DNA from: Laetmonice hystrix
Taxonomy: Eukaryota
NCBI GenBank assembly: GCA_965235115.1
Contig: OZ249436.1
Coordinates: forward strand, 4,900,001 to 4,964,000
Length of the DNA stretch: 64,000 bases
Direction of reading: 5' to 3'
Shown here: one piece after another, positions 12,773 to 36,868 of the stretch
Layout of the letters: every line of letters starts with the position of its first letter
Position numbering within the stretch: position 1 is the stretch's first letter
Position numbers and translations under genes: made by a program
Notes under the pieces: model-generated
The model's input: only the letters and a program-made list of their open reading frames with translations
The model's database searches: none
What the model was told of the DNA's origin: nothing

Positions 12773-13096
12773 TCATGAAGTGGCCTCAATGTCTGACACA
12801 AACTTCCGGCAGGCGGCGCTCACGTCGATCTCATGGAGTGATGTGAGGAGGTGGTCGACCGTGTCCGGAGCTGCTCGCCTCAGGACCACTCCACACTCCG
12901 TGCACCTTCTCACCAACTCCTGGTTGACCTCACAGGGGGTCAGCGTTCGGTCAGTGGTGACGTCATAGACAAGTCGTAGTAAACACCGCAGTATACTGGC
13001 AGCGTGAGCGGCCATACGAGGCCACACTTCAGTGATTACCGTCCGTAACATGACGAGTGCGTTCAGTCGGGACTCCTCCGTCGGTCCGTCATAGAT
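12773..13096 (-). CDS. TTI2: TELO2-interacting protein 2, last coding exon
   Basis: ctgccag|ATC TAT GAC GGA CCG; IYDGPTEESRLNALVMLRTVITEVWPRM...IEATS* matches recalled TTI2 VYDGPEEEARL...TWPR. Minus-strand AATAAA near 12547-12552. Confidence 0.92.
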   Translation of the reverse strand: MYDGPTEESRLNALVMLRTVITEVWPRMAAHAASILRCLLRLVYDVTTDRTLTPCEVNQELVRRCTECGVVLRRAAPDTVDHLLTSLHEIDVSAACRKFVSDIEATS

Positions 13097-13278
13097 CTGG
13101 CAGAAAACAGAAGAATTTGTCGATTTCTTAACTTTTAATTAAACTGCTTGCATTTTTGTCTCTTGAAAAGAAACTTTGGAACTGAAATGTTTCGTACCAT
13201 TACGAGAGGACTTTCTGAGCCGGTTTACATACAAACACACATAGTGGATATTGTCTTGGTGAATGGCACAGCTCATAC

Positions 13279-13444
13279 CTCCAAGTAGTTGTAGATGACT
13301 CTCATTAGGCGTGGCATATTACGGAGCAGGGTTATTCCCATTGCAGTCAGGAGGGGTGGCAGGTGGTGCGAGTAGACACGACGTAGGACCAGTCCATTCT
13401 CCAGCTCCATATCGCGTAGTACCTGCTCCAGTGTGCGGTCATAC
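13279..13444 (-). CDS. TTI2: TTI2 exon
   Basis: ttttccag|G TAT...GAG|gtatga; YDRTLEQVLRDMELENGLVLRRVYSHHLPPLLTAMGITLLRNMPRLMRVIYNYLE. Confidence 0.92.
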
Positions 13445-13766
13445 CTGGAAAAGGTGGCATAGATCTTATTATAGGCCTACAGATCTCTTCATGGAAGCAT
13501 ATAATACGTATTGGAGAAGATGATGGACTAAATATATTACTCTAATTATTATGAGCTGGGACGTAAGGCTTGTTTAAATCTATAATAAAATTAAATCTAG
13601 TTATCTTATGCATCAGGACCCTGGTCACAAAACCTCTGTCTCAGGCTTACAACTCGAGAACACTGAAGCCCCCTTAATGGTGTGTACAAATGACCTGTTC
13701 TTTTATGTACATTCCGACATCCACAGGTGGTTATTATTACAGTTGACGAGATCTCTCCAAGCTGAC

Positions 13767-14071
13767 CTGTTTTCTGACCTAGGTGGCGCCACCTTACGTG
13801 GAGGTGTCTCCACCACGGCCAGTACATTGATGAGGGCGGGGAGCGTTGCGTTCAGTAGTTGAGGGTCGCGGCTGTACAGTTGGTGTTGGAGTGCCTGCAG
13901 TATCACCTCCGCCCTCCCATGACGGACCAACTCTGGTGCTGACACCTCGCGGATAATGTGATCTAAACACGCCACCCCCAGAACCTTGTGTTCCTCCTGG
14001 TGGTCATCGATGAAATTAAGGCTAGGTGGCAGCACTGAGCTCAAGTGATCACTGAGGTTGGGCGACTTTAT
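13767..14071 (-). CDS. TTI2: TTI2 exon
   Basis: ttcacag|ATA AAG...; IKSPNLSDHLSSVLPPSLNFIDDHQEEHKVLGVACLDHII...GRAEVILQALQHQLY. Two phase-2 donors are possible (exon end 13767 or 13779). Confidence 0.9.
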
Positions 14072-14405
14072 CTGTGAACGAGAAATGTGATTCATCATCA
14101 GAAAACGAGAAAATTACTTGGCATCAAATTTATTTTATATGTACGGCATTATAACGAATGACTTCATGAGGGTATGCGGCAGCAAAAAAAGTCACGAGTA
14201 TTCAAAACTTTACATTTATGGTGCCTCATATTCAATTGAACATTGGTTCCTTTCTTGTATTTTAAGCAAATTCACACTTTTTTTATATTTTCTCATATAC
14301 ACATACCTTCCAAAAATGCATACATGTATATTTGTTGCCATTGCTACTTCCTCTTCAAAGGTAGTCAAGAACTTTCAAAAGATATTGGTCAACGGGAAAA
14401 CTTAC

Positions 14406-15191
14406 TTGGAGTAAAAGCCACTTAAATGTGTTTCCAGATGAAGGCCTTTTCTTCCATATGTCTTTCCCTAAGTTTTCTTTCATGACACTGAACACATCCA
14501 TTAACAATCCTCTGTGGACCATGCTGCCCTCAGTAGGAGAACACAAGAGGTGTTGTAGCGTGTCACAATCTGTCGATTCAAGGATTTGTCCGAGCAGGGT
14601 TTCTGCTGTTGTACATGATTCTCCATCAGTCCACGGGCTGTCCACATTCACATGTTCACCAGATAGCAGGACTGCCTTGGTCAGGAGATTCCGCATCACA
14701 CACCGGGTGAGGCGTCTCATCTCTCCGTCTGGAGCCTCAGACATCATGTTTAATTTTTGTAATAGGATAACATAGCATTTCATGGTGGTGGTGGCCCTCT
14801 GAGGCACTCCTTGAAAGTCTGACAGTTTGTAGTCATAATCTTCTGTCCTACTGAACATGCCAACTTCAGTGCATATATACAGGGCCTGAATCAACTTATT
14901 CAACACAATATCACTTGGGTTTTCTGTCAAGATATCGTCATCCTTACTTTGTGTCTGAACTTCATTGTTATGAATTGTTAGCAATGATGGTAAATCAGTA
15001 TTTTCTAATGCTATTTGTAAATTATCAATGAGGCAAATGACATCTTTGCAGCATTGTTCCTCCTTGTCATGTTTAGTTCTTCGTCTACGTTCCACTGTGT
15101 GGGTGTTCAAGGTCAAAGTGTCACACAATTCGTTTAGGTAAGACCCAAGATTTGAAGGCTGATCCAGCCGATCGATCTGGGAGTTCTTCAT
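14406..15191 (-). CDS. TTI2: TTI2 first coding exon
   Basis: Acceptor ttgcag| before 15234, ATG at 15191, 262 open codons ending WKKRPSSGNTFKWLLLQ|gtaagt. The SPWT and WK..P....F.W.L.Q motifs are typical of the TTI2 N-terminal half. Confidence 0.85.
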
Positions 15192-15441
15192 TTTTCTCAA
15201 ATAAAGTTCAATGCCAAAAAATCCGGGAGGCAACCTGCAAACGTTAAGTCAGTTGAGTTAATTGATCATGTGATATAATCTTTTATAAAATAGTGAAATG
15301 TCCTAACTGTCACTGTCACGTCCCCCCCCCTTTCTGGTGATGGGCTATAGTGCTATACTAAAAAGGTCAAAGACAAAGGTCTTGGTCTTGGGGATTAGGC
15401 CTACTTAAATCAGGGGGGGGCGATCAAAAACACCTGGGTTG

Positions 15442-16449: not shown

Positions 16450-16631
16450 ATGGCGTCTGCTTCAAGATTTGTGTTTTTTGGGGCTGGTCGCCAACCTCCG
16501 TTATTTTATGAAGAAGGACGTCCCATACCTGAAATACAGGAGGGAGAAATCCTCGCTCGGATCAGGCTGGCGACGATATGTGGCTCCGACTTGCACACGT
16601 TTGCTGGGGCGAGGAATGAAGCAGTACCGAG
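16450..16631 (+). CDS. Zn-dependent MDR alcohol dehydrogenase (HpnZ/TIGR03366-like), exon 1
   Basis: ATG...CCG AG|gtaatt; MASASRFVFFG...GEILARIRLATICGSDLHTFAG (catalytic Zn Cys in ICGSD). Confidence 0.92.
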
Positions 16632-18200
16632 GTAATTACACGGTCTCGCTCTCAGTTAGACCCCGGGGGACAGGGCCGGAGTCCGCCGGCCACCCACGGA
16701 AGTTACGGGGACGGCTGTAAACACAGGGGGCGTGGCCCTCCACTTTTGACAACTCATGGGCTCTGGCGTAGCTCTAGTCCTGTGGTGTCCCTGTACTCTT
16801 GTAGGCCTAAGGAAGCCATTATAACATGAATCTCAGTCTCCAACTAACTTCTCTGGCTCTGGTGTTTTGGAAAGGCTGCCTCTTTAACTTACCGCGGTAT
16901 GAGTTATGTAACTAGGCTAGGCGGGTGTCACGGATCACTGACAGCGGTGGGGCAATCCGGAGAATAAGCCCCTGGAAACTTTTCATACGAGAAAAACGTT
17001 AGGGTCTATTTTTTAAAAATATTTTTATGAACTTTTGAAGTTTTTTTTAAAGTTTTAGAATTTTTTCCGTACATTTTCCTGAACTTTAAAAAAAAAATTT
17101 GTCTTGAAAACAATTAGAAAATCTTGTAACAAGCTAATATAGGCCTACACTAGGCCTACATGTAAATTTCCTATAGATCTATAGGCCGACATTGTGTATT
17201 TGTTGTTTCTCTCTGAAATGAAGTTTCAGAAAGATTATGGTAAGTCAGAAACAGGGCAAAGATGCTTTATAAATCCTAGGCCTATCTTAAAGGCTCTAAT
17301 AGCCTGCAAGTAGGCCTAGTGCCAGTCAATTTCCACAATCACGGAATCGTGGACCGAATCATGGAATTTCCTATTTGAAACAGAATTTCCAAAACGGAAA
17401 AGGACTTTTTATGCCTACCACTGGTCATTCTCCCATCTGGTCGGCGTAATACGGATTTATTTACACAAATTACAGCCACATCTCCATGTCCAGCCACTCT
17501 CCTTCTTGCCAACCGAATATTCCCCGCCCATACCTCTGGCCAAGACTGACTAGTATTTAAAAAAAGTGGCCTTCTGCGGCACCACCGCTTTCTGTATGCA
17601 CAGACCGTAAAGCATGCTTTTACAACATCAAAATATGGAGACAGAAAAAAAAAATCGGAATTTTCAAAAGTTGTGTGAAAAAAAAACGGATTTTCTCATT
17701 TTCAAAACGAAATTTCCTGGCACCGATCAGGGAATTTCACAGGCTCTATGCAAGTTGTGACAGTATGGTATATCACAATAGGCTAGTGAGGCAAGGGATG
17801 TTAATATTCCTAATGTTAGTGCAGTACACTCTGCATGCATGGTGGGTCATGATCATGAATGCCAGTAGGCCCCTGAGGGTAACATACCTGTTAGTTTTAA
17901 GTGTTACAGTTGTCCACTATTTACCTGAGTGACTAGACCTACTCCTGCTCACAGTCTGGTCTAGGCCTTGTCATGGTAGATTCTAGAACACCGACATGCT
18001 GTGGGGCCTTGTTTTGACATTTTTATGGTGGCCATAATGATACATTATGAAGAGAAATAAGAATTAAGAAAATGAATCAAAGTTTGAGGCGAGTCAACAT
18101 CATACAACGTCGAAGTAGCATGCAGAGAAAATAATTTTATAAAGCTGATGTCCAAGTGCAGCTATTTTTTGTTTTGTTTTGTTTCTTTGTTTCTGTCCAG

Positions 18201-18360
18201 TGTTCTTGGACATGAGGCGGTTGCTGAGGTGGTTGAGACGCGGAGGTCGGATGGAGGTGTAAAGGTTGGGGACAGAATCACATTCTGTGTGGTTGACTCC
18301 TGTTCAGACTGCCATCTCTGTGCTGTAGATGTACCCCAGAAATGTCAACGTTTAAAAAAG
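18201..18360 (+). CDS. Zn-dependent ADH exon 2
   Basis: gtccag|T GTT...AAG|gttagt; VLGHEAVAEVV...GDRI...CSDCHLCAVDVPQKC (GHE motif and structural Zn Cx2Cx2Cx7C). Confidence 0.95.
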
Positions 18361-18575
18361 GTTAGTGTGCACGAAGTCATGAAACAGGTCGGCCAATTAT
18401 AGATTATCTTTCTTCCTGAATTACTCGTTTACTGGATAAAGTAACCTTCCCCCTTTCTAAATATTTTTACACAATAATTTGTAATACATTGATTTGTTTA
18501 TCAAATGATTGGGATATTGTATAAGCCATACAGACTCCCCCCCCCCCCAATATCTGCCCCCCCAATACCCCCACC

Positions 18576-19021
18576 CAGGGGCGGATCCAGCTTTTTCCGT
18601 TAGGGGGGGTTCACGTGTTTCGGGGTAACACAGACGTGACTGTACGAGCGCCGAAGGCGCGAAGTCTGCAAGCGCCGAAGTCGCGAAGCCTTGCTAGGGG
18701 GGTGCGGGGGCATGCCCCCCGGAAAATTTTGAAATTCAAGGTGTAATTTGTTGCAATCCGATGCATTTTGGAGCACAAAATAAGCTATTCAATGACCAAT
18801 GTGAACAAGCGCAAAAGGGCCTCCTCAATTCCAACACCATCTTTGGCTATAGCATGAAATCATGCCGAGCGTAGCGAGGGAAAAAAAAATTTTAGGTGGT
18901 TTTTATCTTGCGACTGAAAGAAAAGATACTTCTAAATTATAATGTTAAATTAAAATGTGTGTATCTGCAAAATTTTAGGGGGGGTTCGAACCCCCTGAAC
19001 CCCCCCCTGGATCCGCCAGTG
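18576..19021. mobile_element. Non-autonomous TIR element (GGATCC family)
   Basis: Ends CAGGGGCGGATCCAG / CTGGATCCGCCAGTG; shares an internal segment with 15442-15777 in opposite orientation. Confidence 0.8.
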
Positions 19022-20457
19022 CCCACGCCCCGTGTGTCCTCAATACAGTATTATTCCTGTCACCTCTGAGCTCCAGCCACAGACAGCCACAGTTCCCAGT
19101 ATTTATACAGTCCAAACTCATGGCGAGAACTCGTATATTGACGGAATCACTGGAGAATTTTACCTGACTGTGGCTACATTCTGTGACATAGCCCGATGCT
19201 ATCTCGCAAACAAGCATTGATAATGAAAACACGCGACTTTTATCTGGAGTGAAAATAGCTGTACCATCGCTTCCTGTGTGTCTGTCATAGCAGTCAGTAA
19301 CCCCCGACCCAGGTATACAGTGGCCCCAGCCTTCTGACAGTCACTTACTGCAAAAAAGGTTGTGAACATTGTGTGTTGCTCTCCTTTTTCTATATTCGCT
19401 GATTCAGATAATTATAGTATGAAGCAGAGAACGTTTTTTCATGGGTGAGTTGTATTGTTTATCTTCAGTAGAACGTCAGGTCCCCTGAAGCCATCTCTTT
19501 TAGTTCCTTTCCTGCACTGTATAACCGTATCGACATGATACTGGTGCTTGCGTGATTAGGAATCAGAGGGTCGTTCTGTCCACGCAGACAGAACTGAGAA
19601 CGTAGTACGGTACGGACGTTAAAGCCTGCAGGAATCCATGTACAATGTATACGTATTGCGTAGTGCAATAAAAACGTGCACTACGCACTAAGCACACATG
19701 GAATCACTCCATGCAACGTGTTTTAATTGATTTTGATGAATACGCATACGCAGTTCAATAAATTAAGCCCAATAGTGCCTACGCATTTCAATAAAGCCCA
19801 AAAGACTCTTTGAGCCCCTTGCTGAACCCAAAGAGTGTTTGCGGCGACGTGGTGTTCCAATAACACTCTATTCTTTAACACTGGTACCGAAAAGACGTCT
19901 TTTGAAAGACTCTTTCCGCAAAGACATCTTTCTTTATTGAAACGCATCTGGCTTTAGGGTGACTAATAAACATGGTCAAACATGATGGAACAGCGTTCGG
20001 TAGTTAACTGTTACCATGTTTGTATTGTCAGTTAGTAATAATAACTACAAGGTATCATCTTTCCCCTCGCCACATATCATGGAAGATACAGTGCATGGTT
20101 GAATACTTCTCAACAACTTCATACAGTTGGTCGGAACATTGTCGAGCTTATATCACAGGTAGGTTGTCGTGCAGGTTCAGCCTCACCTCGTAAACGTCCG
20201 CCAGATAGCGTAACGTAACGTACGTAACAGCACTGTACGCCGACCCGTGTGTATACATGTACATCGTAACCTTCCCCCAGATACCGTAACGACGAGACCA
20301 GCACTGTATACGCCGACCCGTGTGTACATACATGTGTACCTAATAAAAGAAATCGGATAGGAGGAGGATCAATATGGCGACATTTTGTGACAGGTGTGAT
20401 GCAGTGCACGTGTCGTGTCTTCTCATGGTTGTTCCCCCATGGGGGTGTCCCCATGTC

Positions 20458-21397
20458 ATTGGCGGTCGGGCTTGTGGGCACAGGGGATTGGTAGGGGCTG
20501 ATATATTGGCGGTCGGGTTTGTGGGCACAGGGGATTGGTAGGGGCTGATATATTGGTGGTCGGGTTTGGGGGCAAGGGTAGGACAGGGGATTGGTAGGGG
20601 CCGATATATTGGTGGTCGGGTTTGTGGGCAAGGGTAGGACAGGGGATTGGTAGGGGCTGATATATTGGCGGTCGGGTTTGGAGGCAACGGTAGGACAGAG
20701 GATTGGTAGGGGCTGATATATTGGTGGTCGGGTTTGTGGGCAAGGGTAGGACAGAGGATTGGTAGGGGCTGATATATTGGTGGTCGGGTTTGGGGGCAAG
20801 GGTAGGACAGGGGATTGGTGGGGGCTGATATATTGGTGGTCGGGTTTGTGGGCAAGGGTAGGACAGGGGATTGGTAGGGGCTGATATATTGGTGGTCGGG
20901 TTTGTGGGCAAGGGTAGGACAGGGGATTGGTAGGGGCCGATATATTGGTGGTCGGGTTTGTGGGCAAGGGTAGGACAGGGGATTGGTAGGGGCCGATATA
21001 TTGGTGGTCGGGTTTGTGGGCAAGGGTAGGACAAGGGATTGGTAGGGGCTGATATATTGGTGGTCGGGTTTGGGGGCAAGGGTAGGACAGGGGATTGGTA
21101 GGGGCCGATATATTGGTGGTCGGGTTTGTGGGCAAGTGTAGGACAGGGGATTGGTAGGGGCTGATATATTGGTGGTCGGGTTTGGGGGCAAGGGTAGGAC
21201 AGGGGATTGGTAGGGGCCGATATATTGGTGGTCGGGTTTGTGGGCAAGGGTAGGACAAGGGATTGGTAGGGGATGATATATTGGCGGTCGGGTTTGTGGG
21301 CAAGGGTAGGACAGGGGATTGGTAGGGGCTGATATATTGGCGGTCGGGTTTGGGGGCAAGGGTAGGACAGGGGATTGGTAGGGGCTGATATATTGGG
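20458..21397. repeat. 56-bp G-rich minisatellite, ~17 copies, in ADH intron 2
   Basis: Unit GGGGATTGGTAGGGGCTGATATATTGGTGGTCGGGTTTGTGGGCAAGGGTAGGACA. Confidence 0.95.
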
Positions 21398-21465
21398 ATT
21401 GGTAGGATTAGGATGGGACTAGTGAGAGATTCTTAATTCTCGCCCGGGAATTTCGTGAAGATGTT

Positions 21466-22891
21466 ACCATGGTAACTATACCTTTCTCACCGCCACACAC
21501 CACACACGTGGCACGCCCAGTGAAAGGTCCTTTATACGTCACGACCATGGTAACTGTACCTTTCTCACCGCCACACACGTGGCACGCCCAGTGAAAGGTC
21601 CTTTATACGTCACGACCATGGTAACTGTACCTTTCTCACCGCCACACACCACACACGTGGTGCGCCCAGTGAAAGGTCCTTTATACGTCACGACCATGGT
21701 AACTGTACCTTTCTCCCCACCACACACCACACACGTGGCACGCCCAGTGAAAGGTCCGTTATACGTCACGACCATGGTAACTGTACCTTTCTCACCGCCA
21801 CACACCACACACGTGGCACGCCCAGTGAAAGGTCCTTTATACGCCACGACCATGGTAACTGTACCTTTCTCACCGCCACACACCACACACGTGGCACGCC
21901 CAGTGAAAGGTCCTTTATACGTCACGACCATGGTAACTGTACCTTTCTCACCGCCACACACCACACACGTGGCACGCCCAGTGAAAGGTCCGTTATACGT
22001 CACGACCATGGTAACTGTACCTTTCTCACCGCCACACACCACACACGTGGCACGCCCAATGAAAGGTCCTTTATACGTCATGACCATGGTAACTGTACCT
22101 TTCTCACCGCCACACACCACACACGTGGCACGCCCAGTGAAAGGTCCTTTATACGTCATGACCATGGTAACTGTACCTTTCTCACTGCCACACACCACAC
22201 ACGTGGCACGCCCAGTGACAGGTCCTTTATACGTCACGACCATGGTAACTGTACCTTTCTCCCCGCCACACACCACACACGTGGCACGCCCAGTGACAGG
22301 TCCTTTATACGTCATGACCATGGTAACTGTACCTTTCTCACTGCCACACACGTGGCACGCCCAGTGAAAGGTCCTTTATACGTCACGACCATGGTAACTG
22401 TACCTTTCTCACCGCCACACACCACACACGTGGCACGCCCAGTGAAAGGTCCTTTATACGTCACGACCATGGTAACTGTACCTTTCTCACCGCCACATAC
22501 CACACACGTGGCACGCCCAGTGAAAGGTCCTTTATGCGTCACGACCATGGTAACTGTACCTTTCTCACCGCCACATACCACACACGTGGCGCGCCCAGTG
22601 AAAGGTCCTTTATACGTCATGACCATGGTAACTGTACCTTTCTCACCGCCACATACCACACACGTGGCGCGCCCAGTGAAAGGTCCTTTATACGTCACGA
22701 CCATGGTAACTGTACCTACACCACACACGTGGCACGCCCAGTGAAAGGTCCGTTATACGTCATGACCATGGTAACTGTACCTTTCTCACCGCCACACACC
22801 ACACACGTGGCACACCCAGTGAAAGGTCCTTTTATACGTCATGACCATGGTAACTGTACCTTTCTCACCGCCACACACCACACACGTGGCA
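21466..22891. repeat. 78-bp minisatellite, ~18 copies, in ADH intron 2
   Basis: Unit ACCATGGTAACTGTACCTTTCTCACCGCCACACACCACACACGTGGCACGCCCAGTGAAAGGTCCTTTATACGTCACG, with occasional 7-bp-deleted units. Confidence 0.95.
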
Positions 22892-23438
22892 GATTTACTT
22901 GCCTGGCTTTCCCGGCTGGGACTCGGGGGAGGATCCAGGATTTTGGTAAGGGGGAGGGGGGGGGGGTATGGGTGGAATTTGCCAAGGGGGGGGGGGGGGT
23001 CTCAGCATGGTCAATTCAATCGGATCGGATCAGTAGGGGCCTGAGTGTTTTACCTGGCCAAATTTCCACCTGTCACATGACTTGGTGGGCTTGTGTAGGG
23101 ATTAGTACACTGGTTGACACAGACGTACCTCTAGATCAATACCAAGTTGTCGTCTGTCGCTACGATCCTGTGTTCATCAAAACACTGAACCAACCAATCA
23201 TTATACACCGTGTACCTTAGCCCGGGCAGGGTTTCCTGTCGGCCTCACCTCCACCCTGCACTGAGACAGTGTCGCTACAATACGATGGAATCCTCCACAA
23301 AGATATAAACATTATACACATTATACACAACCAATCAGTTTACACGGTGTACATTAGCCCGGGCACGGTTTCCTGTCGGCCTCACCTCGACCCTGCACTG
23401 AGTCAGTGTCGCTACAATACGATTGAATCCTCCACAAA

Positions 23439-23565
23439 GGCCCAGATACACAGACCGATTTACGGCCGATTTAGAGATACGGCCGATTTATCGCCATATA
23501 TTTCCTATGGAGAAAAATCGGCCGTATCTCTTAATCGGCCGTAAATCGGTCTGTGTATCTGGGCC
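23439..23565. mobile_element. Short palindromic MITE
   Basis: ~50-bp inverted arms GGCCCAGATACACAGACCGATTTACGGCCGATT... / ...AATCGGCCGTAAATCGGTCTGTGTATCTGGGCC. Confidence 0.8.
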
Positions 23566-24133
23566 AGGGCAGGTTTACACACATGGTGCACCACTGACCC
23601 GGGTATTACCCGGGGGGAACCCCTGAGTGTGAACCTGGCCTTACTTCCTCTGTCATACCTCCACCCTGTCCCACTGTCACCGTGAGTCAGCAACCTCTCC
23701 CGTCCATATCAGATCGGTGTACTCTCTGGATGGTCATAATACCCCCATCACACTAGAAGGCGATCTAGCTGCGCTCTAGAAAATGGGCCAGATCGCCGTA
23801 GAGCGTGGATAGAGTGCCTTGAGGTCCTTCTGAGCGTCATAGGAGCGAGATAGTGTCTCCCTGGGTCGTCATATGGTCACCATGAGCGCCATTAGCGGCG
23901 ACCAATTTTGAACATGCACAAAATTTACGCCGCAGGGTCGCCGTGGATCTAAAAGCGCAGTTAGATCGAAATGCGATCACCATCAGCGTCCTAGGAGCGC
24001 AGTACCAGATTCCTGAGAGCGCAGGTCGAGCGCCAGTGAACGGGGTAGCATCGGCCTTCCCGTCCCATGGCGCTGGCCCGGCGCTCTTACCACGATGCCA
24101 CCGAGACCTCGGTGACCCTAATGAACCCTTTAA

Positions 24134-24589
24134 GCGGTGTTTCCATTAACGCGGCTGCGGCCCGGCTGCGGTGCGGGCACGGGTACGGCTGATAAGACAC
24201 GTCGTTGTTTTTAAAGGTGCGTCCCGGCTGCGTCTCAATGTTGTTGGTATAAGGTCATAGGCCATACACCTGCCGAATCGATAAGTTTTTCGATAAGTTT
24301 TTCGATATCTTCCTTGCTGACCACGTGAGGTATGGTGCCATCCATTTTTTGAGTGAAGAACATGCACGGGACCACCTAGGACCAAGGGGATCCCTCATGC
24401 GGCTCATCTGCGGCTGTGCTCGAATCGCTCCATGACGCGATCGGGAAGAGCCGCATCCGACGCCCGGACGGGCGCCGGACGGAGATCGCATTAATGGAAA
24501 CACTTACATTAAAAACAACGACGTGCGATATCAGCCGTACCCGTGCCCGGACTGCAGCCGGACCGCAGCCGCGTTAATGGAAACACCGC
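24134..24589. mobile_element. MITE with ~80-bp TIRs, flanked by TTAA
   Basis: TTAA|GCGGTGTTTCCATTAACGCGGCTGCGG...CCGCAGCCGCGTTAATGGAAACACCGC|TTAA. The TSD could be read as TTAA or TA, so the superfamily is left open. Confidence 0.85.
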
Positions 24590-25786
24590 TTAACACGCTC
24601 CGTACGGTGCTGCCGCTGCGCTCATGACGTCAGAGCTGCGTTCTTGCTGCGCAGTGAGCGCAGTATGATCGTATAGGACGTGGTAGCAATGCCATACGAC
24701 GTGGTAGGGACGGCCTAAATTGTCCGAGAATTGCATTTTTCCACGTTGTGGCAGCAGGATGGGAGCGGCATTGCAGTCACACTTGGAGGGGTTTTCTGAT
24801 GTTGACGGCGACCAACGGCGATCTGCGAGGTCGCCGTGGTCGCCGTAAGGTCTTTATCCAGTGTGATGGGGGTCTTAGTGTGCATATTTGGAGTGGAATG
24901 CAGACATGCACTGAAACGCTCAACGTTTCTTTTGTGAGTTGCCGATTTCACGTTATGGTCTATGAGCACGGGAGAGGTCCACCTCAATGTTTTATGTAAC
25001 TTAAATGTTTTATGTAACTCAAATGTTTTATGTAACTTAAATGTTTTATGTACCGAGGTATTGACGTGGTCGTGACAAAGGCTTACTCCAATGTCCTTTT
25101 TCTCCTCCCGTTTTTATTTTATTTTATTTTATCTTTTTTACGTGAGAAATCCGATCTTATTGCGAGTAGCTTGATAAATAACATGGGTTGCATTCACACG
25201 CTGTCGTTAGCTTTTCGTGGCAGAGTACTTTAGCTTGAGATTTTAACGCAAGGCAGGATAACAAAGTTGGTAGAACGCACTCCATGATCCTTTGGCAACA
25301 TCCATTTCGTAACTAATGATTGGACATGGGGTGAAAAGGTTAGATATGAAAAAGAAGGGCTGGCGTAGCTAACAACGGCGTATACTGTCGGAGATGACTC
25401 GACACTTTTTCCGTCACGACTCATGGATGACGTTTCCCCCGTAATCGTCTAGAACGGAGTGCATTAATCCATTCTAACTCCCGTTATAACTCCCGTTATA
25501 ACTCCCGTTATATAACCAAGACAGATTATGTGCTGCGTAACGAGCTCACGAGTCGTATATATAGAGTTCCGACTCGTAAATTTCTTCTGAACGGTATTAC
25601 AGGGTGCCTATAAAACGAAGACCTAAGACCTAAAAACGAAGACCCCCACTTTTTTGGTTATATCATCTTGTAGTGTCACTAAAGCTTGTCAAACTGCATT
25701 ATATTGCTGATAAGGCTAATTAATGTGAAAATAATCAGGGTCTTCGTTTTATAGTTTACCTCCCTTTATGCAGCGTTTGCCAGTCA

Positions 25787-25957
25787 CAGGGGCGAATCCA
25801 GGGGCCCTTTCTTTGAAAAAATGGCTTGCACCCATACAGCGCACAGTCCACCGCTCAGATCCCACGCGCCCCCTTCCACCCCACCCCACCCCCTTCCACC
25901 CCACCCCACCCCCTTCCACCCTACGCCCCCCTTTCCAAAATCATGAATCCGCCCCTG
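25787..25957. mobile_element. Non-autonomous TIR element (GGATCC family) with 5-bp TSD
   Basis: AGTCA|CAGGGGCGAATCCA...TGAATCCGCCCCTG|AGTCA. Confidence 0.82.
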
Positions 25958-26143
25958 AGTCAATCCCCATGGAAACATCGCCAAAAAATAAAGGGCTAAT
26001 AAGAATACCCCTCGGCAGAAACCTAATCCTAATCCAAAATAATGGTCCTCACGCCTCCCAAAAATAAACCCTAATCCTACTTCAAAATAATGGTCCTCAC
26101 GCCTCCCAAAAATAACCATTTTGTCGATTTCTGGTCTCCACAG

Positions 26144-26353
26144 TATGGCCACCTTGCCCTGAGTGACCACGGCTCAGGGTTTAACGGTTGTTACGCCAGT
26201 CACATTGTGTTGAGCCCGGGTACAGCGGTGTTCGCCGTGCCCGACCACGTGACTGACCGAGTGGCTGCTCCCATCAACTGCTCCCTGGCGACCATGGTGA
26301 ACGCAGTCAGCGCCATCCCGAACAACAACAGCTACAGGAGGGCAGTCGTTCAG
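26144..26353 (+). CDS. Zn-dependent ADH exon 3
   Basis: ccacag|TAT...CAG|gtgggt; YGHLALSDHGSGFNGCYASHIVLSPGTAVFAVPDHVTDRVAAPINCSLATMVNAV...RAVVQ. Confidence 0.94.
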
Positions 26354-26816
26354 GTGGGTAAATCAACCACCCCCGGGTGGAGTTAGGCGGGGGACATGGA
26401 GGCTACACAGGGCCTCTACAGAAAGTTTTCACCTCCTGGAGTTAAAGTCACCCCTGAGAAAATGTGAAACACTACAATATATGTACATGATGACATATAC
26501 CCCACCCTAGATATCCTGGGAAGGCCATAGTCATAGATCACCTGGGGGGACGCCGACCATGGCTCCTGTAGACCTACGTGATACTGAAATCTACCTGTAC
26601 AGTAACACACAGCAGTTACTCTAGCTGAGTGTAGCCTACAGTACACCGCTGCGGTCTAGTTACAGTACTGTCGGTGTAGGCGTAAATCAACAAAGGCATA
26701 CATCTCATTCAGTGATACGTCTTTCACAGAAATATTATTTATCTATTAAAACAGCATACCGTTTCCAGCATATATCTTTAAGCGTGGGCACATTATATGA
26801 CATTATCCAAATAAAA

Positions 26817-27030
26817 CATCAAGGTGCATCTTTACCGATGGTGTTGGTCCATCGATCACAAGGATAGTGAGAATTATTAACTTTCTCATCAATGGTCTAA
26901 TTATTGGTCGGTTTGGCGTAGGTCATCAAGGTGCATCTTTACCGATGGTGTTGGTCCATCGATCACAAGGATAGTGAGAATTATTGACTTTCTCATCAAT
27001 GGTTTAATTATTGGCCGGTTTGGCGTAGGT
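26817..27030. repeat. 107-bp direct tandem duplication
   Basis: CATCAAGGTGCATCTTTACCGATGG...GGCGTAGGT occurs twice (starts 26817 and 26924) with few substitutions. Confidence 0.9.
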
Positions 27031-27433
27031 CTGTTCCAGTCATGTCTCCACCTCCCTGACAATATTCTTGAGGTCAGTTCGTAATAAAAGTCACACGACA
27101 GGTTGTCTCCCGCTTCAAATTATATTCTCTTTTGACCTGCGGACATCTGTGGTACTAAATTTTGCTGTCCGTTTTGCCGTCCGTTTTCGAAACAGAAATC
27201 GTAATGATCCAAGCCCGTAGCCAGGGGGGATCGTGGGGATCGGCCGATCCGCCCCGCCAGACCCAAAAGTTCCCTTAAGTTAAGATGCAGGGATGGGTCA
27301 AAAATGCCGTGGCCCTCTGGCGGTAATTGCGTCAACTGTGAGGCACAAAACAGCGCAAAATGTTTCAAATTGCAAGTGTACAACCGCGGTCTCCTGTGAA
27401 ACCTGCCCCTGTAGTTCCCTTTATTGCTGACAG

Positions 27434-27566
27434 GGGGCGGGCATGCTCGGACTGTACGGCTGCGCTTTGCTCAGCAAGCGAGGATTCAGCAAGGTATGGT
27501 GTATGGATACTAACAGAGATCGCCTTCTTCTCGTACCGAGGTTTGGGGGACAACCGCTCAACTTCC
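27434..27566 (+). CDS. Zn-dependent ADH exon 4 (Rossmann fold)
   Basis: gacag|GGG GCG GGC ATG CTC GGA...TTC C|gtaagg; GAGMLGLYGCALLSKRGFSKVWCMDTNRDRL (GxGxxG; Asp suggests NAD preference). Confidence 0.92.
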
Positions 27567-28080
27567 GTAAGGTTCATTGTTTTAAATATTTATCAATGTA
27601 AGAAAAGAAAAGTGTAAAATATTCGTGTGTACAATAGTAGGCATGTAGTTGTTGGAACTTAAAGGAATTGTTAAGTAACTCAATTAGGAATGAACGTTTC
27701 TGAAATGTTTTTGGAACGTTCTGTGTATGAATAAAACCTTGTCATGGCGTTATGTGTAGCCCGGGAGTGGAGCCGTGTCACCCACATTGTTATATAATAA
27801 TCTGGTCACCTGAATTGCTCAACTTGACATGGAGAAACGAAAACAAGATTTGCTCCACACCCTTCGACCCATTCACTGCTATATTGAAGAGGGTGTTCAG
27901 GGGTAAGACCCTCCACCCCCTTGGCGCATTGGCAAAAAATTTTTCTTTTCCCCCATAAAACTTTCTGAATTAATCATGCTGAACCCCACTCCTTTATCAA
28001 ATTTTACCCCCCCCCCCAAAAAAAAAAAAAAAAAAATCTGGATCCACTCCTAAATTATATGTAGTCTAATTATGACCCAG

Positions 28081-28284
28081 GCTCGCACCACCCGCACAGT
28101 GACGGACCAGAGCCCGACTCCATCGATGTCGTCATCGAAGTATGTGGGTCAAACTCCGTCGTCAAAGACGGCGTGTCCTTCCTGAGGCCGGGCGGTATGT
28201 ATATCTTTGTGGGAATGGTTCATCCCGACTCGAGTCTGGACCTGACCGGGGAACAACTCATCAGGAAGTGTCTCACAGTCAAAG
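28081..28284 (+). CDS. Zn-dependent ADH exon 5
   Basis: ...IDVVIEVCGSNSVVKDGVSFLRPGGMYIFVGMVHPDSSLDLTGEQLIRKCLTVK G|gtagga. The acceptor is uncertain: 28081 and 28111 both fit phase 1. Confidence 0.88.
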
Positions 28285-28357
28285 GTAGGAGAACTCATGT
28301 GTCCTGAGGTCATATCACGATCAAATTAACAAGGCTTTGTCCCTCTCGACACATATA

Positions 28358-28648
28358 TCGGGTGGGCCAAAAAAACTGGTGTCACGTCATTCAGATACAG
28401 TAGCACCAACCCTGCCTAAGACATGCGGTACTACGTTAACTGCCCTGATCCGGTATTGTAATGTTTGTAAATGCAGTTTTTAAAAAATGGCATTTTTTTT
28501 TAGACGTTTGGCACTTATTTATCTGTAATTTGTACCACAGGCCCCAAATAACCAGATGATAATATGTGCAAAATATTATGACATTGGGATAGAAATTGTA
28601 GAAGTTATAGTCAAGAAAAGAGTGTCCCCGTTTTTTTGGTCCACCCGA
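28358..28648. mobile_element. Tc1/mariner-like MITE with TA TSD
   Basis: TA|TCGGGTGGGCCAAAAAAAC...GTTTTTTTGGTCCACCCGA|TA. Confidence 0.78.
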
Positions 28649-28833
28649 TATAAACTTGGGGTTGTTCCTCGCCTTTTGTATTAAAAGTAAATGGCATGAA
28701 ACAGTTTTCGTTTTCGTTTTAATTGCGCATTTTCTAGTAAGTTTTAGATCCAGATGCATCATCTTCAGAGGATGAAATACCGAACAATTAAATGTTTCTT
28801 TTTGTTACAGTTTTGTATTGTTCTTCTCTTCAG

Positions 28834-29009
28834 GTATCCATAACTATAGGCCTTGCCACCTGAAGCAGGCCGTAGAGTTCGTATCGAAGACTTGTTCCCA
28901 GTATCCGTATGACTCGTTGTTGAGTCCCGAGAACGCACTGAGAAATCTTCCAGCAGCTGTTGAGCTCGCCCGGAGACATCAGTACCCTAGAGTGGCCATT
29001 CGACCGTAA
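28834..29009 (+). CDS. Zn-dependent ADH exon 6 (terminal)
   Basis: cttcag|GT ATC CAT AAC TAT; GIHNYRPCHLKQAVEFV...LPAAVELARRHQYPRVAIRP*. Spliced CDS totals 1065 nt (354 aa). Confidence 0.93.
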
Positions 29010-32000
29010 CATCGGTACCCCAGAGTGGCCATTCGACCGTAACAGTAATACCCCAGAGTGGCCATTCGACCGTAACATCGGTACCCCAGAGTGATCATTC
29101 GACCGTAACATCAGTACCCCGGAGTGGCCATTCGACCGTAACATCAGTACCCCGGAGTGGCCATTCGACCGTAACATCAGTACCCCAGAGTGGCCATTCG
29201 ACCGTAACATCAGTACCCCAGAGTGATCATTCGACCGTAACATCAGTACCCCAGAGTGGCCTTTCGACCGTAACATCAGTACCCCAGAGTGATCATTCGA
29301 CCGTAACATCAGTACCCCAGAGTGGCCTTTCGACCGTAACATCAGTACCCCAGAGTGATCATTCGACCATAACATCAGTACCCCAGAGTGGCCATTCGAC
29401 TGTAACATCAGTACCCCAGAGTGGCCGTTCGACCGTAACATCAGGACCCCAGAGTGGCCATTCGACCGTAACATCAGTACCCCAGAGTGGCCATTCGACC
29501 GTAACATCAAGACCCCAGAGTGGCCATTCGACCGTAACATCAGTACCCCAGAGTGGCCTTTCGACCGTAACATCAGTACCCCAGAGTGATCATTCGACCA
29601 TAACATCAGTACCCCAGAGTGGCCATTCGACTGTAACATCAGTACCCCAGAGTAATCATTCGACCGTAACATCAGTACCCCAGAGTGGCCATTCGACCGT
29701 AACATCAGTACCCCAGAGTGGCCGTTCGACCATAACATCAAGACCCCAGAGTGGCCATTCGACCGTAACATCAGTACCCCAGAGTGATCATTCGACCGTA
29801 ACATCAGTACCCCAGAGTGGCCTTTCGACCGTAACATCAGTACCCCAGAGTGATCATTCGACCGTAACATCAGTACCCCAGAGTGGCCTTTCGACCGTAA
29901 CATCAGTACCCCAGAGTGATCATTCGACCATAACATCAGTACCCCAGAGTGGCCATTCGACTGTAACATCAGTACCCCAGAGTAATCATTCGACCGTAAC
30001 ATCAGTACCCCAGAGTGGCCATTCGACCGTAACATCAGTACCCCAGAGTGGCCGTTCGACCATAACATCAGTACCCCAGAGTGGCCTTTCGACCGTAACA
30101 TCAGTACCCCAGAGTGATCATTCGACCATAACATCAATACCCTGGAGTGGCCATTCGACTGTAACATCAGTACCCCAGAGTGGCCGTTCGACCGTAACAT
30201 CAGTACCCTAGAGTGGCCATTCGACCGTAACATCAAGACCCCAGAGTGGCCATTCGACCGTAACATCAGTACCCCAGAGTGGCCATTCGACCGTAACATC
30301 AAGACCCCAGAGTGGCCATTCGACCGTAACATCAGTACCCCAGAGTGGCCGTTCGACTGTAACATCAGTACCCCAGAGTGGCCATTCGACCGTAACATCA
30401 GTACCCCAGACTGGCCATTCGACCGTAACATCAGTACCCCAGAGTGGCCGTTCGACCATAACATCAAGACCCCAGAGTGGCCATTTGACCGTAACATCAG
30501 TACCCCAGAGTGGCCATTTGACCGTAACATCAGTACCCCGGAGTGGCCATTTGACCGTAACATCAGTACCCCAGAGTGGCCGTTCGACGGTAACATCAGT
30601 ACCCCAGAGTGGCCATTCGACCATAACATCAGTACCCCAGAGTGGCCATTCAACTGTAACATCAGTACCCCAGAGTGGCCGTTTGACCGTAACATCAGGA
30701 CCCCAGAGTGGCCATTCGACCATAACATCAGTACCCCAGAGTGGCCATTCAACTGTAACATCAGTACCCCAGAGTGGCCGTTTGACCGTAACATCAGTAC
30801 CCCAGAGTGGCCGTTTGACCGTAACATCAAGACCCCAGAGTGGCCATTCGACCGTAACATCAGTACCCTAGAGTGGCCATTTGACCGTAACATCAGTACC
30901 CCAGAGTGGCCATTCGACCATAACATCAAGACCCCAGAGTGGCCATTTGACCGTAACATCAGGACCCCAGAGTGGCCATTTGACCATAACATCAGTACCC
31001 CAGAGTGGCCATTTGACCGTAACATCAGTACCCCAGAGTGGCCATTCGACCGTAACATCAGTACCCCAGAGTGGCCATTCGACCGTAACATCAGTACCCC
31101 AGAGTGGCCATTCGACCGTAACATCAGTACCCCAGAGTGGCCATTCGACCGTAACATCAGTACCCCAGAGTGGCCATTCGACCGTAACATCAGTACCCCA
31201 GAGTGGCCATTCGACCGTAACATCAGTACCCCAGAGTGGCCATTCGACCGTAACATCAATACCCTGGAGTGGCCATTTGATCGTAACATCAAGACCCCAG
31301 AGTGGCCGTTCGACCGTAACATCAGTACCCCAGAGTGGCCGTTCGACCATAACATCAGTACCCCAGAGTGGCCATTCGACCGTAACATCAGTACCCCAGA
31401 GTGGCCATTTGATCGTAACATCAAGACCCCAGAGTGGCCGTTCGACCGTAACATCAGTACCCCAGAGTGGCCATTCGACCGTAACATCAGTACCCCAGAG
31501 TGGCCATTCGACCGTAACATCAGTACCCCAGAGTGGCCATTCGACCGTAACATCAGTACCCCAGAGTGGCCATTCGACCGTAACATCAATACCCTGGAGT
31601 GGCCATTTGATCGTAACATCAAGACCCCAGAGTGGCCATTTGACCGTAACATCAGTACCCTAGAGTGGCCATTCGACCATAACATCAGTACCCCAGAGTG
31701 GCCGTTCGACCGTAGCATCAAAACCCCAGAGTGGCCATTCGACCGTAACATCAGTACCCCAGAGTGGCCATTTGACTGTAACATCAGGACCCCAGAGTGG
31801 CCGTTCGACCGTAACATCAGGACCCCAGAGTGGCCATTTGACCGTAACATCAGGACCCCAGAGTGGCCATTCGACCGTAACATCAGTACCCCAGAGTGGC
31901 CGTTTGACCGTAACATCAGTACCCCGGAGTGGCCATTCGACCGTAACATCAGTACCCCAGAGTGGCCGTTCGACCGTAACATCAGGACCCCAGAGTGGCC

Positions 32001-32358
32001 ATTTGACCGTAACATCAGGACCCCAGAGTGGCCATTCGACCGTAACATCAGTACCCCAGAGTGGCCGTTTGACCGTAACATCAGTACCCCGGAGTGGCCA
32101 TTCGACCGTAACATCAGTACCCCAGAGTGGCCGTTCGACCGTAACATCAGTACCCCGGAGTGGCCATTTGACCGTAACATCAAGACCCCAGAGTGGCCGT
32201 TCGACCGTAACATCAGTACCCCAGAGTGGCCGTTCGACCGTAACATCAGTACCCCAGAGTGGCCGTTCGACCGTAACATTAGTACCCCAGGGTGACCATT
32301 CGACCGTAACATCAAGACCCCGGAGTGGCCGTTCGACCGTAACATCAGTACCCCAGAG
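28977..32358 (+). repeat. 33-bp minisatellite, ~102 copies, derived from the ADH C-terminus and stop codon
   Basis: Unit CATCAGTACCCCAGAGTGGCCATTCGACCGTAA; the first copy is the final 11 codons of the ADH. Confidence 0.97.
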
Positions 32359-34713: not shown

Positions 34714-35339
34714 TCACTGGGCAGACCGATGACGGTCCATTGATATCCATCCACAGGTCAGGAGATGTTTAAAGGCCTGTCGGAATTTGGTGACGCGCGC
34801 GGCGTATATAAACGGGTTCACCCCCGAATTGACCGTCACCATGATGATGGTGAAGGTGTAGGCTTGTAGAAGTTTGGGATCGGTGTTGTAGCGGTCGGTT
34901 ACCAGCAGATAGATCAACGTGAAAACCCATGGCAACCAACAGAGCGCGCAGACACCGATGACGATAGCAAGCGTCTGTGCGACTCGGATGCTTTTTTTGA
35001 GACGTTGCGTCGACGTCACTTTCTCCTCACCAACCATCGTAGCGGCGATTTGACGTCGATGGCGAAGTGCAGTTCCGAACAGAACGACATAGTTTAAGGA
35101 TATAATGGAGAGAACTGTTAAAATAAGTATCATTATGAGCATTGAGTACGCCGGGGAAAAAATGATCGGAAGGTGGCACGGCACTCCAGGCTTCCAATCG
35201 TTGACACCAAGAGGAAAAACTGCCAGGAAGAAGGCGAAGCAATGGATGGCTAGTATTGCAAGAACCATACGTCTGTGGCTTACGATGTCTGTGTATCGGA
35301 GCGAATAACGAATTGACAACAGCCTATCGATTGATATAC
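34714..35339 (-). CDS. Class A (rhodopsin-like) GPCR, exon 3 (TM3 end to TM7)
   Basis: tttgcag|GT ATA TCA ATC GAT AGG CTG; ISIDRL, TM6 CWLP, TM7 NSGVNPFIY, helix 8 KFRQAFKHLLTC. Confidence 0.93.
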
Positions 35340-35441
35340 CTGCAAAGAGCGTGAAATGATATCAGATCATATTGCAATAAGATATTTACAAGTCTTGGCC
35401 TATTTAAAGGCGCTCGACCGAGCAAGAACAGAAATTGTCTG

Positions 35442-35593
35442 GGGGCCGTTTCACAAACATTATACGTGCCCATATTTCCTCGTATACGGCGTATTCCTCG
35501 GTAGAGCTACGTTTTTCGTTTTTTTTGGGGGGGGCCTCGTTTTTATTTTAGAGGGTATTCAGCTCTTAAGGATACGACCCCTTAAATGACCCC
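35442..35593. mobile_element. Short PIF/Harbinger-like MITE in GPCR intron
   Basis: CTG|GGGGCCGTTTCA...TTAAATGACCCC|CTG; imperfect TIR with a 3-bp direct repeat. Confidence 0.5.
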
Positions 35594-35722
35594 CTGGGCA
35601 CCACAGGCATTCTTCCTGTTTGTTAACATAATAACTACGATTGAAGCGTTATTGTTGGGTTAGTTGATAAAGATGCATTATCCAGCAGAATTTTCATACG
35701 TGGGACACCTAGGCTTACTTAC

Positions 35723-35900
35723 CTCCAAGTAGCAGTACGGAACATGTTGTGCTGTAAACGATGAAGGCATACTGCAGCATACAGGGCCAAAACTGTTTCA
35801 AGAGTTCTGGGTCGAAAATTGCCACGATTCGAAAGGTGGTCACCGCGCCGTATAAGAAATCGCAACCAGCGAGATTCGCGACGAGGATGTTTGTAACACT
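35723..35900 (-). CDS. Class A GPCR exon 2 (TM2-TM3)
   Basis: tttcag|AGT...GGA G|gtaagt; SVTNILVANLAGCDFLYG...WPCMLQYAFIVYSTTCSVLLLG (LAxxD motif, TM3 Cys). Confidence 0.93.
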
Positions 35901-36600
35901 CTGAAACGGGTTATAAAAAGCTATTCATTATCAGTGTAACAATGTCAGGCCTACTTCAATCACTGGCCATAATATTACATATACACTCTTCAGTAAAGAG
36001 CTGACCTGATGCAATTTTTGCCTGACCTTGGATTGGTTGCATGACCCTTTCCCGTTAAAGTCTCCATTCAAAATGCATTCAACGGTGAAGTGTAACAGGA
36101 AGGTCACTGGTGACTGGTTACAGTGGTACTTTGCACAGCGGTCGTTAGTCTGTCCTGCCTTTAAAATAATCTGCCTTTTAATACAGGACAGATAACCATT
36201 GGTTTGGGGCCACTTGCCTTAGCTTCCATTTGTTAAAATTCGAACGGCAAATACATATTAAACGTAACGAACGAAAAGAATACTATGAAAAGTGTCCGTT
36301 GACACCCGGTGTCGGTCTATTCAGGCCTTTTCAGGTCCAAATGGCTATATTTTTCCAGCAGGAGGTTTGTCAATTAGCAACTAAATTCTGCGATATATTT
36401 TCGCAGATATCGATAGGCATAGATCCGCAAAGGTCAGCATGACATTGCAGTGTTGCACGTTAAAAAAGCCCTTGCAAAAGAGTGTGGCGTGTCCCGGTGT
36501 CCAGGTTTCTCTCGTGCCATTCCTTACATCTCCTAGATGGACTAAATAAATGGAAATATTTGTATATGCAGATGACTGGCTGCCTGTTTTTGAGGCTTAC

Positions 36601-36786
36601 CTGCAGAGATTCGAACCTCCAGAAAGCAACCATAACGAGACCGTTCCCACAAAGGACGACGAACGAGACAGAGAAGTTAAGCAGGAATCCGCTCCATGGA
36701 AACGGTGTCAGTTCTGTCGTGTTGGGACTTATCGTGATCGGACTCTGGGAGCTCTCTGAACCCATCACCGGAGACAAGGTCGTCAT
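36601..36786 (-). CDS. Class A GPCR exon 1 (N-terminus, TM1)
   Basis: ATG at 36786; MTTLSPV...NTT...SFVVLCGNGLVMVAFWRFESLQ|gtaagc (N-glycosylation site, GNxLV motif). Confidence 0.88.
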
Positions 36787-36868
36787 CTTCAAGCTTTCGT
36801 CGTCTGAAGTAAAAGTTGTTTGTAGACCTGATTCACATTTTATATATTTCTAATTGACAGTTCCAGTG

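Follow-up and report, generated by a model that had tools for sequence, protein, structure and literature searches.

A six-exon dehydrogenase gene of Laetmonice hystrix and its putative role in 2-hydroxyethylphosphonate metabolism

Results

Structure and integrity of the gene

The stretch of Laetmonice hystrix DNA analyzed here (64,000 nucleotides, positions 4,900,001 to 4,964,000 of contig OZ249436.1, assembly GCA_965235115.1; hereafter the window, in whose numbering positions are given unless a contig is named) contains, on the forward strand at 16450..29009, a gene for a zinc-dependent medium-chain dehydrogenase/reductase (MDR) whose product probably interconverts 2-hydroxyethylphosphonate (HEP) and phosphonoacetaldehyde (PAA). 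Six joined forward-strand exons give a 1065-nt coding sequence with no internal stop, encoding 354 amino acids followed by TAA. Exon 1 (16450..16631) opens with ATG, closes at a GT donor, has NCBIfam family TIGR03366 as its top match (E 1.7e-9), and supplies C44, S46, and R55. Exons 2 to 5 are each bounded by AG and GT: exon 2 (18201..18360; TIGR03366, E 1.9e-11; Pfam ADH_N) carries H65 and E66, the cysteines C95, C98, C101, and C109, and K108 and K114; exon 3 (26144..26353), whose sole match is TIGR03366 (E 2e-13), carries H117 and C160; exon 4 (27434..27566; E 6.6e-6) encodes the GAGMLG motif, D209, and R214; and exon 5 (28081..28284; E 4.9e-10) continues the cofactor domain. The coding part of exon 6 (28834..29009; E 6.4e-7) follows an AG acceptor and ends, after H299, N300, and Y301, with the TAA stop. 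Residues C44, H65, and C160, with E66, make up the catalytic zinc site, the four cysteines make up the structural zinc site, and the Rossmann motif GAGMLG is accompanied by D209, the acidic residue of an enzyme using nicotinamide adenine dinucleotide (NAD). A complete six-exon, 354-residue MDR with all zinc ligands and an NAD-type Rossmann fold had been described in an earlier note made from the letters of the sequence, and the GT-AG exons, the intact reading frame, and the residues located here bear out that description; the motifs quoted there are all present, and two of them span introns.

The five predicted introns (1569, 7783, 1080, 514, and 549 nt) all have GT..AG ends. The splice choices were settled by alignment to P0001 and to the Lingula protein P0019, and for exon 5 the acceptor at 28081 was chosen because it leaves the alignment with homologues free of gaps. 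Other candidate acceptors for that exon, at 28100 and 28113, were rejected as out of frame, and that at 28111 was rejected because its product would be 10 amino acids shorter than the homologues. Residues 1-354 align with one gap to P0001, the closest full-length homologue, at 66% identity, and the identity is 56% to the Lingula protein P0019, in an end-to-end alignment, and 55% to the Owenia protein P0020. The gene is single copy, on contig C1 of the 35-contig, 627-Mb assembly. The two other MDR matches in the genome, at 25-26% identity to the window protein, are long-open-reading-frame genes at C30:315794-316657 (L004) and C5:9582761-9583534 (L007), to which no family was assigned; they score best as threonine dehydrogenase-like, far under the cut-off, and served only as an outgroup.

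Sequence variants were taken from DNA-like contigs of three runs of one sample, which list 21 substitutions and 6 indels. All six exonic substitutions are synonymous and the sole exonic indel is in frame, with exon 3 holding three of the synonymous variants together with the in-frame 3-nt insertion and exon 6 holding two. Synonymous changes make up 24% of the possible changes, which gives six out of six a naive p of 1.7e-4 uncorrected for transition bias. The dehydrogenase gene is an intact host gene.

Family assignment

Scanned singly, all six exons have TIGR03366 as their NCBIfam top match (E 6.6e-6 to 2e-13), and together they tile positions 1-313 of the 315 in the model, with Pfam ADH_N and ADH_zinc_N matched as well. 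The exon-wise sum of 224.7 bits understates a whole-protein score, the window protein having been scored per exon and its full-length homologues whole. P0001 reaches 309.8 bits against TIGR03366 and 110.9 against threonine dehydrogenase, the next-best family, and the models for threonine, sorbitol, and class I-III alcohol dehydrogenase (ADH) score about 200 bits lower than TIGR03366. In each of the 18 full-length animal homologues scanned, TIGR03366 and no other family attains E <= 1e-35, though none of the 18 (187-325 bits) reaches its cut-off of 328.1 bits. A resemblance to this family (named HpnZ_proposed and described as a putative alcohol dehydrogenase linked to phosphonate catabolism) had been the central claim of the earlier note, and it holds in that TIGR03366 is the best family by ~200 bits, is matched over its whole model, and is the best family in every full-length homologue scanned; it has to be qualified in that the animal proteins fall under the cut-off and in a sister subclade, and no HpnW- or HpnX-type gene was recognized in the genome.

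The closest solved structure by profile is TM0436 of Thermotoga maritima (PDB 1VJ0, E 3.6e-54). For a structure model of the bacterial relative P0043 (pLDDT 93.2), which is not the window protein and informs on fold only, 1VJ0 is likewise the closest fold, with a TM of 0.90 at 28% identity. TM0436 shares with the window protein a cysteine as third zinc ligand, but has D, I, and V, as read from the alignment, where the phosphonate site described below has R, H, and N. When P0019 was searched against the Atlas, the matches were generic zinc-ADH clusters.

Comparison with the bacterial enzyme PbfG

A bacterial HEP dehydrogenase, PbfG, has been described by Piazza et al. (2026, PMC13576164), from whose main text the following is taken. 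PbfG is a PF00107 dehydrogenase encoded with phnX or with phnY-phnA in Actinomycetota, Planctomycetota, Bacteroidota, Gemmatimonadota, and Verrucomicrobiota, and it interconverts HEP and PAA. The Cellulosimicrobium protaetiae enzyme (WP_154797266) oxidizes HEP with a kcat of 9.9 /s, a KM of 0.10 mM, and a kcat/KM of 88,500 /M/s, and reduces PAA with a kcat/KM of 290,000 /M/s, ~3-fold above that for HEP oxidation; it prefers NAD+ threefold over NADP+, has no appreciable activity on 2-aminoethylphosphonate (AEP), threonine, ethanol, propanol, or glycolate, and releases phosphate when coupled to PhnX. Its AlphaFold3 model places zinc on C45, H66, and C166 and has HEP contacting S47, R56, H124, and N298, and its nearest characterized enzymes are threonine dehydrogenases. 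That main text mentions neither eukaryotes nor TIGR03366 nor HpnZ.

Each of the seven PbfG residues has a counterpart in the window protein, C45, S47, R56, H66, H124, C166, and N298 corresponding to C44, S46, R55, H65, H117, C160, and N300; these were matched by spacing and not by direct alignment, with offsets of 0, 2, 11, 21, 79, 121, and 253 in PbfG and 0, 2, 11, 21, 73, 116, and 256 in the window protein. The exact PbfG spacing was found at 7/7 positions in 3 of 281 proteins and at 6/7 in 27 more, and the columns of these proteins align with the residues of the window protein. All seven residues are kept in aligned columns in 254 of 271 family proteins of 300-540 amino acids, and, by group, in 31/31 close bacterial rows, 23/23 rows of the TIGR03366 core, and 24/31 animal rows; K108, K114, H299, and Y301 are invariant and present in the window protein, and the two other MDRs of the genome lack the R, H, and N of the phosphonate site. 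Like PbfG, the window protein is a PF00107/PF08240 two-zinc MDR with a Cys/His/Cys catalytic zinc site and a structural zinc site of four cysteines, its nearest bacterial relatives come from four of the phyla named for PbfG in that main text (Planctomycetota, Bacteroidota, Gemmatimonadota, and Verrucomicrobiota) and stand beside phnY-phnA, and its genome likewise encodes a PAA hydrolase. It differs in that the animal gene is eukaryotic, has six exons, and lies apart from its partner genes, and in that the genome is equipped for phosphonate synthesis as well. From residue spacing, taxa, and gene context we infer that PbfG belongs to the TIGR03366 family in the wide sense.

Some animal copies depart from this site. 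In P0033, P0039, and P0044 (hemichordates and a second Lingula copy) the substrate histidine is replaced by Phe, and changes are likewise present in the copies of Antedon, Uloborus, Ridgeia, and Penaeus; such copies may possibly represent new specificities.

Phosphonate genes elsewhere in the genome

Exon-by-exon genome searches, in which bit sums over exons are rough, recovered exon-split genes for PepM (contig C6, 35.80 Mb, L089-L092, five pieces), phosphonopyruvate decarboxylase (Ppd; C11, 10.58 Mb, L108-L112, five pieces), and AEP transaminase (C3, 10.87 Mb, L102-L107, seven pieces). A two-exon PhnX gene lies at C18:20542448-20543999 (L099/L100; 215.6 + 60.5 bits, cut-off 220), and a PhnZ-like HD-domain oxygenase in three exons at C3:39353947-39358325 (L115-L117; TIGR03276, 168 bits against 214.6), which may provide the animal with a second, oxidative route of C-P cleavage. 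When 12 partner-gene pieces were rescanned, the expected family was the top match in all 12. The co-occurrence of the dehydrogenase with phosphonate genes, which the earlier note had put forward as a check, is found for PepM, Ppd, AEP transaminase, PhnX, and the PhnZ-like gene. PhnX is 64-81% identical to the best 120 of its 3372 matches, many of which are from molluscs, brachiopods, annelids, and environmental sequences, and those listed include named homologues from molluscs, Lingula, and Ridgeia.

PhnA and PhpC (TIGR03405) gave no match in the genome, which does not prove their absence. A true PhnY was not found there, the matches being generic aldehyde dehydrogenase exons (best 78 bits); HpnW (TIGR03364) was met only as 32-34-residue FAD-motif matches, and HpnX (TIGR03351) was not recognized among matches of 31-69 bits, one of which is the true PhnX. 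The PhpC/FomC enzymes (PF00465, TIGR03405) catalyze the same HEP-PAA reaction as PbfG but have an unrelated fold and are unmatched in the genome.

Gene context of the bacterial relatives

The neighborhoods of bacterial homologues were read, with flanks of 7 kb, from 80 GTDB loci that include many close kin and came out best among 566 in a ranking against P0043; neighbor families were obtained by clustering and then by scanning 60 proteins from 14 loci, the hits being used as queries. The scanned neighbors include PhnA, PhnY, PhnW/AepZ, HpnW, PbfA, a PhnZ-like oxygenase, and GlpT-like transporters. A phosphonate-catabolic gene occurs within 7 kb at 59 of the 80 loci, and at 37 of the 45 that have full flanks. 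PhnA is present at 49 loci, PhnY at 35, HpnW at 20, PhnW at 7, PhnZ at 4, and PbfA and PhnX at 1 each, though the count for PhnX-type genes, for which the animal PhnX exon was the sole query, may be low. The dehydrogenase with PhnY and PhnA and without PhnW is the pattern predicted for a route from alcohol through PAA and phosphonoacetate to acetate and phosphate. Chondrinema litorale, which PMC13576164 names among Tables S1/S2, has a family protein that keeps 7/7 residues and adjoins a PhnX-like gene.

A DUF5690-family protein lies near the dehydrogenase at 21 of the 80 loci (among them L018, L020, L051, L068-L071, L074, L077, L078, L082, and L113), sometimes as the sole conserved neighbor, and is a candidate phosphonate transporter. 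In the environmental protein P0173, a TIGR03366 dehydrogenase is fused to a TIGR03276 PhnZ-type oxygenase, both above cut-off.

Distribution and phylogeny

Homologues with a named source come from the sponge Sycon and from cnidarians, annelids, a brachiopod, and a chiton; from rotifers and an acanthocephalan; from a horseshoe crab, a spider, and shrimps; from echinoderms, hemichordates, amphioxus, and a tunicate; and from the protists Diplonema and Arcella. No vertebrate, insect, or nematode is named among the best 120 of 2526 dehydrogenase matches, which is no test of absence. The gene is no oddity of this animal, being present in about ten invertebrate phyla and at least two protists. Lingula, Liolophura, and Ridgeia are common to the listed dehydrogenase and PhnX matches, and bivalves and gastropods, numerous among the best 120 PhnX matches, are absent from the best 120 for the dehydrogenase, which again is no test of absence. 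Public labels (mostly threonine or sorbitol [SORD], but also L-idonate 5- or hydroxycamphor dehydrogenase-like) differ between orthologues.

In a tree of 95 rows picked by hand from the match lists (LG+G4, 351 columns, rooted on the two distant MDRs of the genome), the 31 animal rows (29 named, the window protein, and P0001) form one clade with support of 100/94 in which Sycon branches first and the window protein is placed with annelid and brachiopod proteins. Its place beside annelid proteins makes an annelid host probable. This clade lies in a 69-row subclade (100/99), separate from all 23 rows that score above the TIGR03366 cut-off, that also holds Planctomycetota, Verrucomicrobiota, Bacteroidota, Gemmatimonadota, Latescibacterota, Chloroflexota, and protists, and whose bacterial members mostly have phnA/phnY and hpnW. 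The closest bacterial relatives are ~50% identical to the window protein, and support for grouping the animals with 29 mostly bacterial rows is no higher than 82/84; a constrained clade of animals with Diplonema and Arcella was not rejected (p-AU 0.08). The tree supports one origin at or before the sponge-bilaterian split, for which either transfer from bacteria to animals or inheritance from earlier eukaryotes may account.

Neighboring genes and repeats

Pieces of a Tti2-family gene lie on the reverse strand at 12776-15248, head to head with the dehydrogenase gene and at most about 1.2 kb from it, and a rhodopsin-family G protein-coupled receptor gene with several exons (34717-36849, reverse strand) flanks it on the other side. 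A 33-bp minisatellite on the forward strand (28976..32358, 3.4 kb; 102.5 copies with 91% matches by TRF) has as its unit the last ten codons and stop of the dehydrogenase gene, and its first copy is the end of the coding sequence. The minisatellite probably grew from coding sequence, since the encoded ending resembles that of the homologues; all 29 genome matches of a 132-nt piece of the array lie inside it, in a DNA search that skips very common words, and it has no known role in the enzyme. Intron 2 contains 56-bp and 78-bp minisatellites (20527-21396 and 21466-22891), intron 5 contains a dispersed repeat of very high copy number (28350-28630, depth in thousands), and from ~44400 to 64000 there is a tandem array of an 828-bp unit, with at least 23 copies at >99% identity, that continues past the window end.

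Discussion

The window protein likely interconverts HEP and PAA, whichever direction prevails in the animal. The earlier note had guessed at this interconversion, which has since been found for the bacterial PbfG and is predicted here for the animal protein from sequence. More specifically, we favor, at a probability of roughly 0.5, an animal HEP dehydrogenase that is mainly oxidative and feeds PhnX. The enzyme would be a two-zinc, NAD(H)-preferring MDR of the PbfG type, in which the alcohol oxygen would sit on the catalytic zinc held by C44, H65, and C160, R55, H117, N300, and S46 would hold the phosphonate group, and hydride would pass from C2 to NAD+. HEP from food, or from the turnover of phosphonate-bearing polymers, would be oxidized to PAA, which would either be split by the animal's own PhnX (C18), in an irreversible step, into acetaldehyde and phosphate or be converted to AEP by the AEP transaminase (C3), making PAA a hub that Ppd produces, the transaminase exchanges with AEP, and PhnX destroys. 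What speaks for the oxidative direction is that the bacterial relatives serve degradation and that the PhnX step cannot be reversed.

Several observations weigh against this proposal. Seven of the 31 animal rows have altered substrate residues, including that of Ridgeia, nearest in the tree after P0001; the actinobacterial-type core members, with only 32-42% identity to the window protein, belong to the other subclade; and the link to PbfG rests on spacing, taxa, and gene context. The partner genes are unlinked in the animal, so that context gives no direct link, and among the bacterial loci, which are not mutually independent, 21 of the 80, some of them on short contigs, lack any core phosphonate gene, and the best match (L009) is one of these. 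Equilibrium and kcat/KM both favor PAA reduction, as described for PbfG (PMC13576164, main text), and the genome makes PAA through PepM and Ppd, so that flux may run backward.

The last of these points leads to the same chemistry in reverse, with the enzyme as a biosynthetic PAA reductase that would take the place of PhpC and supply HEP as a head group for lipids, glycans, or metabolites. The exon-split PepM and Ppd genes and the unmatched PhpC (TIGR03405) fit this possibility, as do, in the main text of PMC13576164, the ~3-fold greater efficiency of PbfG on PAA with an equilibrium toward HEP, the presence of pbfG within clusters of two Actinoplanes that look biosynthetic, and the HEP-containing metabolites reported from sponges. 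We regard it as the main rival, though the less likely direction, in that the same text calls pbfG degradative in nearly every case, the genome's PhnX would drain PAA, none of the scanned members of the 28 neighbor clusters present at at least 4 of the 80 loci was identified as biosynthetic (PepM not having been searched directly), and HEP in annelids was not found in the literature searched, which covers few subscription journals. It is also conceivable that the animal branch has drifted to another small anion, such as isethionate/sulfoacetaldehyde in taurine turnover or a hydroxylated or N-methylated aminoethylphosphonate. Taurine is abundant in marine invertebrates, the altered animal copies vary at substrate positions, the PhnZ-like oxygenase points to other phosphonate substrates, and HpnW recurs at a quarter of the bacterial loci (20/80). 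PbfG itself has trace isethionate activity (about 7 /M/s) and binds AEP with a Ki of 0.71 mM, but isethionate lies four orders of magnitude below HEP for that enzyme (PMC13576164, main text), the window protein keeps all seven residues together with K108, K114, H299, and Y301, and the full phosphonate gene set is in the genome, which leaves such a drift improbable.

Taken at face value, the L-threonine 3-dehydrogenase-like, SORD, and L-idonate 5-dehydrogenase labels on its homologues would make the protein an ordinary threonine, sorbitol, or idonate dehydrogenase; the labels are inconsistent between orthologues, P0001 scores 310 bits for TIGR03366 as against 111 for threonine dehydrogenase, no other family reaches E <= 1e-35 in any of the 18 animal homologues, and threonine is not oxidized by PbfG (PMC13576164, main text), so that we give this reading very little credence. 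The ~50% identity of the close bacterial relatives is the one point in favor of bacterial contamination, and a dead gene copy is opposed by exonic substitutions that are all synonymous; five GT-AG introns with internal repeats, animal flanking genes, a chromosome-scale contig, and a position amid annelid and brachiopod proteins within a clade made up of animals alone render either virtually negligible, as the earlier note had already argued for contamination from the introns and flanking genes.

Enzymes of HEP breakdown were assigned only in September 2026 and described as bacterial (PMC13576164, main text), and a 2023 review (PMC10574752) characterizes eukaryotic phosphonates as "even more cryptic". 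In the coral Acropora, PepM, Ppd, and AEP transaminase have been described (PMC3640398), and PhnX has been counted among the foreign genes of bdelloid rotifers (PMC3499245) and of corals (PMC4878875); the passages of these reports that deal with the AEP genes and PhnX name no HEP dehydrogenase, and the HEP branch is added here. Animal AEP genes and PhnX are thus already known, and what is new is the dehydrogenase. In the literature searched, which takes in the main text of PMC13576164 and few subscription journals, no eukaryotic or animal member was found to be reported.

An enzyme branch spread across the animals, together with PhnX, predicts that invertebrates can release the phosphate of HEP, or synthesize HEP, independently of microbes, and its recognition would correct annotation across about ten invertebrate phyla, where threonine, sorbitol, idonate, and hydroxycamphor dehydrogenase-like labels now stand. 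More tentatively, the common ancestor of sponges, cnidarians, and bilaterians may have possessed a complete phosphonate cycle (PepM, Ppd, AEP transaminase, HEP dehydrogenase, PhnX, and PhnZ) that has been kept in most aquatic invertebrate phyla. If this is true, invertebrates would be unrecognized producers and mineralizers of HEP, which is a major phosphonate in the dissolved organic matter of the sea and has until now been attributed to microbes, and the dehydrogenase would be the switch between the making and the breaking of HEP.

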